DNA from: a virus
Lineage: Duplodnaviria; Caudoviricetes
DNA: 64,000 bases
IMG/VR virus record: IMGVR_UViG_3300031555_004710
Coordinates: 172,672 to 236,671 of that record
Direction: 5' to 3' (one strand)
Below the pieces are notes generated by a model. That model had not been told where the DNA came from. It did not search any database and saw only the letters and a program-made list of their open reading frames with translations. Position numbers and translations under genes: made by a program. This document shows, piece after piece, positions 8,266 through 48,415 of the stretch. How positions within the stretch are numbered: the stretch's first letter is position 1; the number at the start of each line of letters is the position of its first letter.

Positions 8266-9141
8266 ATGCAAGGGAACATAAAAGGAAAATTTAAAGTAAT
8301 AACACTTTGCGGTTCAAGTAAATTCAAGAAAGAATTTATAGAAGTTGCAGAAAAACTTTCATTGGAAGGAAATATTGTAATTTCATTAGGATTATTTGGT
8401 CATGCTGATAATAAGTTTGCTACAGTGATAACTGATGATGTTAAAGCAATGCTTGACGCAGCGCATAAACAAAAAATTGAAATGTCTGATGCAATTTATG
8501 TAATAAATCCAGGAGGATATATAGGAGACTCAACTAGAAGTGAAATAGGTTATGCAATTAATCTTGGAAAAGAAGTTCATTTCTTAGAACCAATAAAAAG
8601 TATTCAAAAAATCGGTGATATATATAAAGTTATTACTGATAATGATACTCTTGATTCACCTGGAGATCCTATGAATAATGATATTATTACGTATAAAATA
8701 GATGATTTTAAGTATTTTGATGATTTATGTTCATTCTATAGAAATACACCAAAAGAAGAAGTTATAGATAAAAATCTTTTATTTAGAATAACTGCATCTG
8801 GTGGATATGATTATCGTAATAAATATATCGAAGAAGACGATCTTATAAAACCAATTATTGTAGATGGTTTATTGACTTGGATTAAAATACCATTATCATT
8901 TGATGGATTATCATTGTCGACTAGTTTCAAAGACCTTTGTGAAACATTTAATCCACATATACACATGGCTAAATTTGGTAAAGTTTATCAAATTATAAAG
9001 GGTGGAGGAAAAGATTATTATGGTGAGCCTATAATGGATGGTGATTATTTAACATATCATGATACTAAAAAAGGAGTTTATGCATGGAGTAAACTCCACA
9101 GTAAATTATTGGAGGTAATACAAAATGAGCAAATCAAATAA
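8266..9141 (+). CDS. Protein with N-terminal nucleoside deoxyribosyltransferase-like (DUF4406-type) domain
   Basis: ITLCGSSKFK...HKQKIEMSDAIYVINPGGYIGDSTRSEIGYA pattern; promoter motif at 8230-8244. Confidence 0.55.
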   Translation: MQGNIKGKFKVITLCGSSKFKKEFIEVAEKLSLEGNIVISLGLFGHADNKFATVITDDVKAMLDAAHKQKIEMSDAIYVINPGGYIGDSTRSEIGYAINLGKEVHFLEPIKSIQKIGDIYKVITDNDTLDSPGDPMNNDIITYKIDDFKYFDDLCSFYRNTPKEEVIDKNLLFRITASGGYDYRNKYIEEDDLIKPIIVDGLLTWIKIPLSFDGLSLSTSFKDLCETFNPHIHMAKFGKVYQIIKGGGKDYYGEPIMDGDYLTYHDTKKGVYAWSKLHSKLLEVIQNEQIK

Positions 9142-10415
9142 ATGTAATATAGAATACGTTAGAGTAGAAAAGATACCACTTGACTTAGAGTGTTGGCATG
9201 ATATTGCTACTGGCAATGGTATTAGACTTACTTCAGTTGAATCTTTTGATAAAAAGAATCAGAAGATATATAGAGGGCTTCAGTCAGAATTCTTTGGTTC
9301 AGACTTTTCATCAGACTGGGCTTTTAAAGAAAGATATAGTTGTAAATGTGGAAAATATATGGCTAAAGCATATTCTGGAATGGTATGTGATTTCTGTGGC
9401 ACTAAAGTAGAATATCACGATATTGACCTTAAGAAAACTGGATGGGTAATTCTTGATAAGTTCGAAGTTCTTTCTCCTATATATTCGGCAAAACTTACAG
9501 AAGCGTTAGGTAAGGCTGATGGAGAATCTGTACTTAGAATGATACTTAATCGTAGATATCATGAAGAAGGGGTAATTGAGTACTCTGAAAAAGAATTAAC
9601 AAACATAAAGAAGCATCCATTTTCTCAAAGAGGTATGCAGTGGCTTAGAGAGAATATAATGGAAGTATTAGACTTCTACGAAAAGAGAAAACCTGGTAAA
9701 CAAAAACTCTTTGAAGAACTTAGAAATGAACAGGCTAATATGTGGACACATTCTATTCCTATTTACAGTTCTCTTTTAAGAACAGAACTTCCTGGAGAAA
9801 AAGGTTCTAAAAACTTTAAGCTTAAAGTAAACACTCATTTCAAATCAATCATTCGATTAGTAAATGCAATTAATGATATAGACCCAGATGATATGGATTA
9901 TATCACATTAAATTCTATAGATATATATCTTGCAGGAATTCAAAAAGAAATAGACCAAGTATTTGATGTTACTTTTAAAGACCTTACAGATAAAACTGGT
10001 ATTATAACAAGTAAGATACTCGGTGGAAGATATAACTTTAGTTCAAGAGATATTATAGTTCCTGATAGTGGAACTTTAAGGTCTGATGAAGTTATAATAG
10101 GATATATACCATTTCTTGAATTATATAGATATGAAATTCAGAATGAATATAGAAAAATACATGGCTGTACTCCAGCACAAGCAAATACTGCTTGGAAAAG
10201 AGCGACTAATCATTTCGATCCTAAGATTTATGCTATAATAGAGCATATGGTTAATGACCCTGAATATAGAAGATATTTAGGTGTATTGATTAACAGAAAT
10301 CCTAGTATAAACTATGGATCATTTGATTATGTTAAAATCGTTGGTGTTAAGAAAGATATCTCGGATAAAACTCTTACAATACCAACACACATAATAGTTC
10401 CAATGAATGCCGACT
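9125..10415 (+). CDS. RNA polymerase beta'-like subunit, N-terminal part (putative non-virion RNAP), exon 1
   Basis: Zn finger CKCG...CDFC, GGRYNFSSR, NRNPSI, ends at PMNAD; joined to exon 2 it gives NADFDGD (spliced product 488 aa). Confidence 0.9.
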
Positions 10416-10742
10416 TAACAAATCCGTTGAGGTCGGGTACAGTAGTAATATTGTACATGTATCTAGGTGAACGCTTAACCAGCGGTGTCTATTCTATAGG
10501 CTAACGGTAGAAGTTAGATAAGCATTATAGATGTCGAATACGCTTCGTAAGAAAAGCTACGGTCCATTTATAATATGGATAGCAGCCAATACCGTGCCAA
10601 GCTTCTATATACATATAGTTGAAGGTGTAGAGACTAATTATTAGGATATATGATGGAAAGCATATATTCGAAGCGCCTAGCTCCTATGTAAATAGGATGA
10701 AGATATAGTCCACATATTATTGAAAAATAGTAATTATTATTG
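10416..10742 (+). mobile_element. Group I self-splicing intron without ORF (327 nt)
   Basis: Exon ends in U paired with G in P1 (CCGACU/GGUCGG); R element GTAGAGACTA and S element AAGATATAGTCC form P7; terminal G at 10742; removal restores GAC TTC GAT GGC GAT. Confidence 0.93.
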
Positions 10743-29670: not shown

Positions 29671-29790
29671 TTTGAAATCTTAGGAATATTTGCAAATATC
29701 CCTTACAGGATAATAAGAGAGAACTATCAGAGTTCTCTCTTATTTTTTATTTCGTAATAATAAATTTTTTTATTGATATATTATTATTAT

Positions 29791-30154
29791 GAGTAAGTAA
29801 GATTATAATGGTCGGGTGACTCTATAAGTTCTTGCGGAGATAAACATCGGTAAGATTGGAAATCTTGGGATGTCCGGGGAATGACTAGATACCATTATCT
29901 TAAGTGCAATAATCTATCCACCCAATGTCGATACCAGGCAGAGGGACTAGATTAACACCGAGGGTATTCTTATAATGTTAATTTATAAGAATCATTCAAT
30001 CAATAAACGAAAATAGTCGATAATAAGTTGGCAGCTTGCATTGACCACCATACTCAATGCAATACGGAAACCAACTTGACAATCTTCTATAAGTCCATCG
30101 AATATTGAAAGATGATTCAAGTAGATTAATATTTAGAATACTCTCTTACTGCTC
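29791..30154 (+). ncRNA. Putative structured ncRNA (~364 nt), family unknown
   Basis: Early promoter motif 29777-29791; 5' GAGTAAGTAAGA pairs with 3' TCTTACTGCTC; several internal helices; no ORF; downstream T-run. Confidence 0.7.
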
Positions 30155-30184
30155 GAAAATCTAATCTAATTTATTTTTTTTTTC

Positions 30185-39177: not shown

Positions 39178-39254
39178 TGGTCCGAGTAGCAGGATTTGAA
39201 CCTGCGGCATCCTGCTCCCAAAGCAGGCGCGCTACCTAACTGCGCTATACCCGG
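39178..39254 (-). tRNA. tRNA-Pro(UGG)
   Basis: Cloverleaf CCGGGTA/TACTCGG, anticodon stem CCTGC-TTTGGGA-GCAGG, GGTTCAAATCC, encoded CCA. Confidence 0.97.
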
Positions 39255-39260
39255 AATTAA

Positions 39261-39336
39261 TGGCTGGGATGGTTGGATTCGAACCAACGAAATGCAGGAG
39301 TCAAAGTCCTGTGCCTTACCGCTTGGCTACATCCCA
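39261..39336 (-). tRNA. tRNA-Gln(UUG)
   Basis: TGGGATG/CATCCCA, anticodon CAGGA-CTTTGAC-TCCTG, GGTTCGAATCC, encoded CCA. Confidence 0.97.
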
Positions 39337-45667: not shown

Positions 45668-46735
45668 TTATAACTTGAGTTGATATACATATTCGTTTAT
45701 CTTTTCTTTAGATACACCAAAATCTTTTTCATTAGCATATACATTACGATGTATATATACTTTATCAATCCATGTTTGATAGAACGGTTTTCGTAATAAT
45801 GATAAATGGTCTTTATCCGTTTTATCATTATCAGAATATACATGTAGATTAATGTCAGTAGTAACCCCCGTATATATTAAATATTTTAATATGGTACTAA
45901 AACTGTAACCACAGCTAGCGAAAAATAAGGAGTTCTGAGAAGTTTCTGGCTTTAAATTTAAATAAACGCTCAATATATCAAATGTTCCTTCTGCAATATG
46001 AATATTAATTGGTTCTGTATATAATAAATCAAATGTACTCATGAGAGAATAAAATGTATTTGGGCTTCTATTCAAGATATCCAGAGTAACTTTATAATAT
46101 CTACCTAGAAATCCAGAGCTATCTATACTCACATCTCTAAATACAATTTTATTATTATTCGCAGATACAAATCCCAAATATTTTTCATCTAAAGTTTTTA
46201 CAATTGTTGATTTTAAGCATCCACCCATTACATCTGGTACATCTACTGGGATTTTATTTGCATCTATAAATTCCCAGAAGCTTAAAACGATTTTATATTT
46301 TGCACAATCTGAAAATGTTAAATTTGTACCAAGTCGAGTATTTAGATAATTTAATTTACGATAATTTGTACTACTATCACTAGGTACTGGAACTATAAAA
46401 TTCTTTACTTTATCTTTAAAATATGAAGTATTTGAACTCATCCTACTTAGCAACTCAAGTTGCTTATTTAATGATTGATCATATCCCAATTGTAAATCTT
46501 CTAAAACTTGAGGAATTAATATTCCCGACTCATTACATTTTAGACATCTATACAGCATTGGTGCATCTGAATTCAGATCTACCAATATTGAAAAATGTCC
46601 ATGATTGGATTTAACACTGTCGCCACAATACGGACAACGAACTACCCATTGTCTCATATTTGAACTTGGTTTGCAAACTGGTAAAGTTTTTAATTGATTT
46701 ATTACTTGCTCTTTTATTTCTATACCAGGTTTCAC
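45668..46735 (-). CDS. DNA primase (DnaG-like, Zn finger plus TOPRIM)
   Basis: RCPYCGDS..H..CLKC; IAEGTFD and YSDND TOPRIM motifs; early promoter 46767-46781 (minus). Confidence 0.85.
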   Translation of the reverse strand: MKPGIEIKEQVINQLKTLPVCKPSSNMRQWVVRCPYCGDSVKSNHGHFSILVDLNSDAPMLYRCLKCNESGILIPQVLEDLQLGYDQSLNKQLELLSRMSSNTSYFKDKVKNFIVPVPSDSSTNYRKLNYLNTRLGTNLTFSDCAKYKIVLSFWEFIDANKIPVDVPDVMGGCLKSTIVKTLDEKYLGFVSANNNKIVFRDVSIDSSGFLGRYYKVTLDILNRSPNTFYSLMSTFDLLYTEPINIHIAEGTFDILSVYLNLKPETSQNSLFFASCGYSFSTILKYLIYTGVTTDINLHVYSDNDKTDKDHLSLLRKPFYQTWIDKVYIHRNVYANEKDFGVSKEKINEYVYQLKL

Positions 46736-46862
46736 AATTAACCACCACCATTTCTATTAACTATTTCAAATAAATAATACATGATTAAAGTTCATTTATA
46801 TTTAAATTTTCTATGAGCCACGAAAAATTGATAAACGAATTTTAATGATATATTATTTGAGT

Positions 46863-47691
46863 GAGTAGTAGAATAAATATATTGGTTTTTAATAAGTTTT
46901 ACATATATAGGCGTCGTGTATCTATTACTCCATGTTGATGAAAACTTTAGACGAGGATGGCATGCTCGTTGACTATGATGGTGATAGGGAAAGTCACATA
47001 GTTGCACTATAAATATAATGGCCGCATGTGGCGTGGATCAAACGTGGAGGGTCCGTCGTTATATTTATATAGTGAGCTCGGTTCTATCGTGGACTATCAC
47101 GTAGGACAGCATATTGATAGATAGGCTAGGTCGGTCATGTAATGTAGCTCAGTTTACTATATAGTCATAGAATAGACCTGAAAGTCTGAGCGGGCGAATA
47201 TTGAGTGGATAATCTATAATTATCGATGAGGCGAAATATCCCATGACAAAGGATGAGGTGTGGTCAAGGCAGAGAATAACTCTAGGCCTTGGTGTAATTG
47301 AAATTATAGTTATTCACTCGATTAGTAGCTTTAATTACCTTATGATACTTTTATAATACTTATTGCCACATTTGAGTATTATTTAAGTTATAAATAGATA
47401 CCTGAAGTTGCCTAAAGTCTGAAATAAACATTTCAGAAGACAAAGCACGCCAAGCTAAGCGAGTATCGGACTTAGTGGGTTACCGAGTTTCCTGATTGGA
47501 TAGTATACTAAATGACCCTGTTGTACGAAATGGTATCCATCAACTATATTAAAAAATAAATTTATTTAAATATTATGTACTTATAGTTGATGAAAATACT
47601 CGGCGCCATAATAGTGATATTATGGGAAAGTGACTTCTGAGGGGAGGTCACTATATATAAAAACTGTATATAATTTACTTCTTCCCACCTC
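46863..47691 (+). ncRNA. Putative giant structured ncRNA (~830 nt)
   Basis: Early promoter 46849-46863; no credible ORF over 1 kb; visibly GC-richer than flanks; terminal pairing and more than 12 helices readable by eye. Confidence 0.8.
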
Positions 47692-47820
47692 ACTTTTATA
47701 TATCGATACTATATAAAAGTATTATACGTTATGATTTCCTTCTTCCTGGAATTTTATCCCTATTCCAGTGTTTAATCATAATGTATTATTAAATGGTAAA
47801 TTATATACAATATAGTTTTA

Positions 47821-47851
47821 GAGAAAGTATAAAGGGTGCTTTCTCTTTTTT
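47821..47851 (+). terminator. Intrinsic terminator downstream of the large ncRNA
   Basis: GAGAAAGTAT-AAAGG-GTGCTTTCTC followed by a T-run. Confidence 0.7.
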
Positions 47852-47899
47852 ATAAAAAATGTATAGAGAATGAGTATATACTCATTCTCTATATTAATC

Positions 47900-48415
47900 T
47901 TACTTATCGCTAGCTTCTGCTTTAGCTATCTGAGCATCTATTTTACTGGTGATATCTTTACCAGCTTTAGAGTTCATGTTAGCAGCTTTATTTCTAGCAT
48001 TTTTGATAATCTTCTTAGCTTCAATCTTAGCTTTTGCTCCGTATTTAACATATATCTTTTCACGAGTTTCAATAAGAAGATCTCTGTATTTTCTGTATTT
48101 ACTATACATTGCATCATTATTTATCATTGCCATTCTAATAGCAGTACGCTTTGCAATACGATTAAAGTTAGCCACTTTCCAATCTTTTATAACGATTCTT
48201 TTAGCAGCTTCTGTAGCCATGTCTGCATCAGAGATTACATCATACAATGCTAATTCTGTACCAGCAGATTCAAGAACTTCAGAAAATTCTTCATCTGTAG
48301 CGCATTCATTACGAATAGCAGATAAAACTATCTCAGATTCAATAGCAGCATTACCAATAACTGTAACGTCCTCAGCTGTAGGCATCTGCTGAAGTTCATT
48401 CATGATTCCTGACAT
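47900..48415 (-). CDS. Putative head protein with propeptide
   Basis: AIES, VLES, ATEA sites; late motif 48473-48484. Confidence 0.6.
   Translation of the reverse strand: MSGIMNELQQMPTAEDVTVIGNAAIESEIVLSAIRNECATDEEFSEVLESAGTELALYDVISDADMATEAAKRIVIKDWKVANFNRIAKRTAIRMAMINNDAMYSKYRKYRDLLIETREKIYVKYGAKAKIEAKKIIKNARNKAANMNSKAGKDITSKIDAQIAKAEASDK

Follow-up and report, generated by a model that had tools for sequence, protein, structure and literature searches.

Group I ribozymes found in nature are, to our knowledge, introns or portions of introns. A precedent for their domestication is the GIR1 lariat-capping ribozyme, which is derived from a group I intron, has lost P1, and performs a job other than splicing. 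GIR1 is part of a twin-ribozyme intron in eukaryotic rDNA, where a homing endonuclease mRNA follows it, and its P15 junction is rearranged. Other points of comparison are the tandem of a c-di-GMP-II riboswitch and a group I ribozyme in Clostridioides difficile, the IA2 introns of Twort orf142, and the phage-associated RNAs GOLLD and ROOL.

The RNA described here was found in a window of 64,000 nucleotides, which denotes the whole stretch of DNA analysed. With the Twort orf142 IA2 introns it shares the P3-P9 order, the P3/P7 pseudoknot, P7.1/P7.2, a GAUA loop in P7.1, a GNRA L9 loop, the GUAG and CGAAAUG-P3′ motifs, the GCCAAGC P4′/P6 junction, and an A-rich J8/7. Unlike these introns, the phage RNA is intergenic, has no exons, mostly lacks P1 and P2, and possesses its own promoter and terminator; the central pair of P7 also differs, with GAGU/ACUC in the phage RNA versus GACU/AGUC in Twort-type introns. 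By analogy, the RNA may be likened to GIR1 as a group I-derived core minus the splicing substrate helix, although the twin-ribozyme/P15 setting is not seen. The C. difficile tandem resembles it as a ribozyme that does not interrupt a protein gene and that follows a large 5′ structured domain, comparable in position to the 5′ extension termed Module A. That tandem has kept its splicing activity and regulates the ORF that follows it, whereas no ORF lies downstream of the phage RNA and Module A has no Rfam riboswitch match. GOLLD and ROOL share its size range, phage association, ruminant-gut type samples, and ornate multi-helix structure, but neither matches the phage RNA in Rfam at E ≤ 10, and what is conserved in the latter is a group I-like core of far smaller size. 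The reading favoured here, with a probability of roughly 0.6, is that the locus is an accessory RNA gene whose core has a group I IA2-like fold, is not an intron, and most likely acts in trans.

The RNA cassette in a hypervariable slot

The window derives from a 236.7-kb IMG/VR virus record. Its source is an AR9/PBS1-like jumbo phage, whose primase and B-family polymerase share 26-31% identity with their counterparts in AR9, PBS1, BpSp, and Staphylococcus jumbo phages. The cassette lies in a gap of 1164 bp that separates the primase gene from a 171-aa gene (Table 1). Both flanking genes are opposite in strand to the cassette, and the + strand flanks of the RNA are antisense to them. As the initial annotation had described, about 1 kb is devoid of credible ORFs and is richer in GC than its flanks: no ORF exceeds 71 aa in 46736-47899, and GC is 0.41-0.43 at 46900-47300 versus ~0.28 in the flanks, with G exceeding C on the + strand. 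A hidden ORF or recoded gene is ruled out, with TAA, TAG, and TGA each dense in all six frames and no frame opened by stop-codon recoding. RNA-level structure, also proposed at the outset, is borne out by a minimum free energy z of −4.8 against dinucleotide shuffles for 46863-47700 (838 nt) and by G-U pairs that fit the + strand only.

Table 1. Features of the RNA locus in the window and, in the last five rows, of introns in other contigs (coordinates of the named locus).
Feature	Position	Strand	Remarks
Primase gene (PHROG primase)	45668-46735	−	
RNA cassette	46849-47852	+	Early promoter, ~990 nt ORF-free, terminator
Putative early promoter, virion RNA polymerase type	46849..46863	+	TATATTAT-N6-G, predicted +1 G46863; consensus fit, conservation
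Module A, GC-rich 5′ extension	46863..47392	+	~530 nt; ends in P2-like hairpin ATAATACTTA/TGAGTATTAT
Core 5′ half	47397..47537	+	A2 covariation; R1 146 bits
P3	47397-402/47532-37	+	GATACC/GGTATC; encloses P4, P5, P6, P7 5′ strand, P7.1, P7.2
P4	47409-11/47445-47	+	
P5	47417-41	+	
P6	47450-78	+	
P7	47483-88/47598-603	+	CCGAGT/ACTCGG
P7.1	47490-500	+	
P7.2	47503-26	+	
P8	47538..47592	+	AT-rich hairpin in this phage
J8/7	47593-97	+	AAAAU
P9	47606-25	+	Hairpin, GUGA loop
P9.1	47630-51	+	Hairpin
P9.1 hairpin and variable 3′ domain	47630..47819	+	3′ domain closed by AAAACT 47660-65/AGTTTT 47814-19
Intrinsic terminator	47820..47852	+	Hairpin 47820-47846; 11-bp stem then T-run
171-aa gene	47900-48415	−	
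Nested canonical group I core in P8 loop, L005	4560-4700	−	R2
Nested canonical group I core in P8 loop, L045	2558-2697	−	R2
Nested canonical group I core in P8 loop, L050	236-392	−	R2
Nested canonical group I core in P8 loop, L052	221-353	−	R2
Intron example, L072	8897-9120		

Rfam has no match to the RNA region at gathering score, and at E ≤ 10 it returns terminator-like noise at 47800-47900 only, leaving the RNA body without a match. GOLLD, ROOL, OLE, and group II are likewise missing from the RNA body at both thresholds, as are RNase P and tmRNA. ARAGORN finds no tRNA or tmRNA at the locus. Comparison with GenBank phage DNA gives no similarity, the short matches being AT-rich noise, and the RNA is single-copy in the phage genome according to R1, a model built from its core.

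The experimentally defined early promoter of AR9, used by the virion polymerase, is AAATATATATTAT-(6N)-G+1 (PMC5312081). The cassette promoter matches this consensus (PMC5312081), with TATATTAT at 46849-56, 6 nt, and then G46863, the +1 that had been predicted in the initial annotation. The bare octamer TATATTAT is only mildly enriched (42 observed versus 31 expected), but its longer version, TATATTAT-T-N4-TGAG, is found again ahead of many + strand genes in the window. All RNA-carrying contigs keep the promoter block TTTTAATGATATATTATT, which is missing in contigs without the RNA. We infer that the injected virion RNA polymerase probably reads the cassette immediately after infection. At the other end, the terminator expected there proves to be an intrinsic hairpin (47820-47846) with a T-run, kept with compensatory changes in every RNA-bearing contig; a second hairpin close by, at 47862-47893, serves the 171-aa gene as its − strand terminator. 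The proposal of a large structured + strand noncoding RNA with its own promoter and terminator is supported.

Two minor observations concern promoters. A sigma-70-like promoter, TTGATA-17-TATTAT (10/12 matches), overlaps the phage early promoter at 46828-46856 (+); sigma-70-like sites in this region are no commoner than in shuffled sequence. Another early-promoter motif, TATATTAT-TATTAT-G, with no ORF after it, belongs to the stretch 29777-30183 (+), and neither R1 nor R2 (a model of canonical phage introns) has a match there.

Relatives were found via primase homologs leading to syntenic contigs, in metagenome assemblies of ruminant-gut type, and the cassette is carried by eight related metagenomic contigs. 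The slot measures 1143 nt in L044 (primase identity 99%), 546 nt in L002 (82%), 715 nt in L053 (78%; L054 covers that place in another sample), 588 nt in L045 (74%), and 605 nt in L005 (72%). In L004 (162 nt; 77%), L047 (328 nt; 69%), and L007 (140 nt, rearranged; 64%), the RNA is gone together with its promoter and terminator, and in L048/L049 (62%) the slot holds protein genes (PHP, DUF1653). BLAST and alignment identify the promoter, the core (window 47393-47665), the 3′ helix, and the terminator as common to L002, L005, L045, L050, L052, and L053, and only ~270-420 nt (the core, 3′ helix, and terminator) are shared among members. This modular pattern of presence and absence marks the RNA as a discrete cassette in a hypervariable slot. 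Across relatives, the slot flanked by the 171-aa and primase genes is a cargo site that is seen empty, with a 62-aa ORF, with the RNA cassette, or with the PHP/DUF1653 block.

Searches farther afield gave no additional members. The flanking proteins lead to distant phages only in IMG/VR (primase ≤41% identity), none with the RNA, and IMG/VR pattern scans for the core return 0 matches. Six matches in a JGI metagenome scan for the core were discarded as chance matches in coding DNA. R1 finds no homolog in the genomes of the cultured phages AR9, BpSp, LPJP1, and Machias; a 19.5-bit match in Machias lies inside the tape-measure gene and was rejected.

That the locus is no RNA gene at all, being instead a DNA element such as a replication origin or regulatory spacer, or a decayed gene, is suggested by its position in a hypervariable slot that adjoins the primase and is near the DNA polymerase. 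This is highly improbable, since the sequence is enriched in GC and in G rather than AT-rich, contains no iterons, and has no open frame under any stop reassignment, while the promoter and terminator bracket the RNA exactly and the compensatory and G-U-preserving substitutions are strand-specific.

The conserved core and its group I helix order

The structure of the core was derived from alignment A2, which spans P3..P3′ in eight contigs, and alignment A3, which adds P7 and P9. A2 contains 31 pairs that are 94.7% paired, 18 of them with changes on both sides, and A3 contains 45 pairs in 10 helices that are 94.4% paired. The compensatory changes predicted for homologs are present, in 26 of the 45 core pairs of A3 (n = 8). 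None of 500 shuffles reaches these values in either alignment, and slid controls give 31-41% (A2) and 30-41% (A3). G-U pairs are again consistent with the + strand only, and the compensatory structure is maintained across primase identities of 72-99%.

P3 and P7 are each 100% paired with two covarying positions (n = 8); P3 appears in relatives as GATAGC/GCTATC and GATTCC/GGAATC, and P7 as TCGAGT/ACTCGA and CCAAGT/ACTTGG. The two helices cross to form a pseudoknot. P7.1 and P7.2 both covary (n = 8), P9 has five covarying pairs and an invariant GUGA loop, and the P8 closing helix is present yet different in each relative (CAUCAAC.., AAUCCAU.., CUUCCAG.., CCAACAC..). The loop of the optional P9.1 is always purine-rich and Shine-Dalgarno-like (GAGGGG, GAGGGA, GGAGAGAGGGAG, GUGGAG in the window, L002, L050, L052, and L053).

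The following local helices from the initial annotation exist and are kept in relatives: TCTGAAAT/ATTTCAGA, CTAAG/CTTAG, CCGAGT/ACTCGG, CATCAACTATA/TATAGTTGATG, CCATAATA-GTGA-TATTATGG, the CACTATA.. helix, and TTGAGTGGATAA../..TTATTCACTCGA. Two of its long-range closures give way to other pairings. The ends were said to pair at 46884-90/47659-65, and AAAACT 47660-65 instead pairs with AGTTTT 47814-19, with covariation. A 500-nt domain was said to be closed by GTATCTATT/AATAGATAC (46918-26/47393-401), and 47397-402 instead forms the covarying P3 with 47532-37. CCGAGT/ACTCGG was drawn as a helix that simply encloses another spoke; the helix is real, and rather than enclosing the spoke it crosses P3 as a pseudoknot. 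It is the group I P7 that had been deemed unrecognizable (47483-88/47598-603).

The strand order is P3-J3/4-P4-J4/5(UAAA)-P5-J5/4(AAA)-P4′-P6-J6/7-P7-P7.1-P7.2-P3′-P8-J8/7(AAAAU)-P7′-P9. This is the group I core helix order with its P3/P7 pseudoknot, backed by covariation in eight sequences, and P7.1/P7.2 lie between P7 and P3′ as in subgroup IA2. J4/5, J5/4, and J8/7 (5-6 nt) are A-rich and highly conserved in sequence. The invariant GUGA of L9 is found opposite a conserved C-U:A-G in P5, a pairing that Costa and Michel are said to have described in 1995 as the receptor for a GUGA L9.

Sequence motifs also coincide with those of Twort. Between L002 and Twort orf142 intron 2, UCCGAUAGG (P7.1 with its GAUA loop) and CGAAAUGG (the junction into P3′) occupy the same structural positions, and the P7.1 GAUA loop, GUAG, and CGAAAUG motifs are common to Twort intron 2. 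GCCAAGC at the P4′/P6 junction also occurs in Twort intron 3 and in the phage's own intron. P7 with J8/7 reads CGAGU...AAUACUCG versus CGACU...AUAUAGUCUG, the single differing pair being flipped on both strands. R1, with filters off on a 13-kb test set that includes the Twort introns, has its best match in Twort intron 2, where P3..P3′ aligns helix for helix, but with 12.7 bits and E ~0.09. The top three R1 matches spanning at least 90 nt (L056:1270-1403, L059:1661-1752, L056:1547-1704) all lie within RF00028-defined Twort introns, as does a match lower in the list (L060:1835-1969).

The core departs from canonical group I introns in several respects. J3/4 and J6/7 are longer than usual, and P4 is just 3-4 bp. 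The P7 pair that corresponds to the guanosine-binding G-C (window G47485-C47600) is G-C in six of eight members and A-U in L050 and L052, and the adjacent bulged nucleotide of the G site is absent. An intron would have P1 with a U-G 5′ splice site and an internal guide, a terminal G at its 3′ splice site, and flanking exons. The RNA lacks exons, its + strand flanks are antisense to the neighbouring genes, and a terminator comes after it. In L002, L005, L045, L050, and L052, P1 and P2 have no space, because the putative promoter rule places +1 at 2-3 nt before P3.

RF00028, the Rfam group I model with a family threshold of 50 bits, has no match at E ≤ 10 on the window RNA, L002, or L053 and scores the Twort introns at 64-101 bits as a control. 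Its blindness to the cassette RNA is weak evidence, because at E ≤ 0.001 it misses at least one canonical phage intron, that of L072, as well. Model R2 derives from 40 canonical phage group I introns. It detects those of Twort and the ones nested in relatives, but even with filters off it gives no meaningful match to the core or Module A in the window.

A new class of large ornate noncoding RNA unrelated to group I, with a convergent or coincidental likeness, would account for the silence of Rfam at E ≤ 10 and of R2 on the core, the long J3/4 and J6/7, the short P4, the varying G-site pair, and the lack of known relatives for Module A and the 3′ domain. Such a class is unlikely, given ten helices in exact group I order with the pseudoknot, 8-9-mers common to Twort intron 2 at homologous positions, and structured R1 matches that fall in register within known introns, in addition to the failure of RF00028 on L072. 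On this comparative evidence, the core appears to share its fold with, or derive from, group I IA2 introns without being an intron, and the whole of P3-P9, with its P3/P7 pseudoknot and P7.1/P7.2, probably descends from a phage intron of the IA2 kind.

Extensions of the core and nested introns

Module A is found in the window and L044 only (two of eight contigs). The promoter leads directly into P3 in L002, L005, L045, L050, and L052, and in L053 a 36-nt hairpin takes the place of Module A. Module A has no match in Rfam (E ≤ 10), GenBank phages, R1, or R2; short hammerhead-like and glmS-like motifs, noted by eye and without Rfam backing, were dropped. Its window and L044 copies show 91.4% identity and 35 gap columns, compared with 94-98.5% identity for neighbouring genes, and the differences cluster at the tips of hairpins, a 27-nt deletion in one tip among them. 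In these two sequences, A-U/G-U switches preserve the local helices, together with one or two double changes, such as GUGA/UCAC to AGC/GCU at 46981-96. When the L044 substitutions are placed on the minimum free energy fold of the window alone, local hairpins are kept and long-range pairs are not.

An 8-nt direct repeat, TATTATTT, flanks Module A at 46851-58 and 47377-84 with TTGAGT beside each copy, and the right-hand copy resembles a degenerate second promoter box. The repeat may be the footprint of the insertion that made the long form.

The closing helix of the 3′ domain covaries by inspection (AAAACT/AGTTTT, AAAACC/GGTTTT, AAAATC/GATTTT, AAAACTC/GAGTTTT). Its interior of ~150 nt (47666-47813) is present in the window and L044 only, at 99% identity. 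The 3′ domain of the window has stretches rich in C and U. The view that the locus is a single unit of ~830 nt and of a wholly new class has to be revised, since relatives divide it into a ~270-nt group I-like core and lineage-specific additions. From these comparisons, the 'giant' size is a lineage-specific accretion on a conserved free-standing core, made up of extensions of 530 nt at the 5′ end and ~150 nt at the 3′ end.

P8 carries insertions of another kind. R2 matches the P8 inserts of L005, L045, L050, and L052 with E = 3e-7 to 3e-3, placing a second, canonical group I core in the P8 loop and making these four loci twintron-like RNA genes. L053 has a similar, more diverged insert in P8, and the window's own P8 has none. 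Excision of the nested intron of L050 is predicted to leave an outer RNA with a short P8, AAUC-loop-GAUU. Tolerance of an intron inside the outer RNA speaks for the latter being used as RNA. All four loci have the 17-mer GGCAAGTTTAAATACAG in their large P8 inserts, and this 17-mer occurs in 113 IMG/VR contigs (loci L072-L184). Among the matches listed, it is mostly part of P6 of widespread small phage group I introns that apparently interrupt genes (one, L072, was checked). A few, such as those in L074, L082, L086, L099, L113, L125, and L149, look like chance matches outside introns.

The phage probably has a genuine group I intron of its own at ~10480-10732 (+), directly after a 459-aa ORF (9125-10504); RF00028 matches it with 36 bits and E = 1e-8, below the family threshold, and neither flanking ORF has a Pfam match. 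With at least this other group I intron in the phage, canonical cores nested in P8 of relatives, and a P2-like hairpin ending Module A just before P3, the cassette itself could be an ordinary selfish self-splicing intron or twintron in a noncoding transcript, Module A supplying P1-P2 and the 5′ exon and the RNA having no function. This account is distinctly unlikely: in five of the eight members no sequence is left for a 5′ exon or P1/P2, +1 being 2-3 nt before P3, a homing endonuclease gene is absent, the RNA has its own conserved promoter and terminator between opposite-strand genes, and compensatory change keeps its structure over primase identities of 72-99%.

Proposed role of the RNA

For an accessory RNA gene with a group I-like core, the conserved junctions are informative. 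J4/5, J5/4, and J8/7 form the surfaces on which the substrate helix docks in group I ribozymes, and they may serve the same role here. A trans-acting role is favoured because these P1-docking junctions are highly conserved while P1 is missing. The RNA most likely acts early in infection on another RNA or a small ligand, either catalytically, as a ribozyme, or by binding through a tight fold.

A more specific proposal, that the RNA is a domesticated exon-less group I ribozyme that is early-promoted and acts in trans, is tentative and unlikely. Such a ribozyme could, for example, cleave, join, or sequester host or defence RNA, or could soak up a guanosine-type nucleotide signal, and the variable 5′ module, P8 insert, and 3′ module would tune its target or regulation. 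If true, no natural ribozyme of group I type before it would have been known to act in trans, and it would also be a counter-defence or takeover factor made of RNA alone.

A conserved group I fold that is exon-less, lacks P1/P2, and is maintained as an accessory gene would mean recruitment for a non-splicing job. Whether group I ribozymes act in trans in nature, a long-standing question, thereby becomes testable, and an RNA candidate joins the early-expressed accessory genes of these phages. Elsewhere in the window, two adjacent tRNA genes are located at 39181-39336 (−), with Rfam scores of 65-70 bits.
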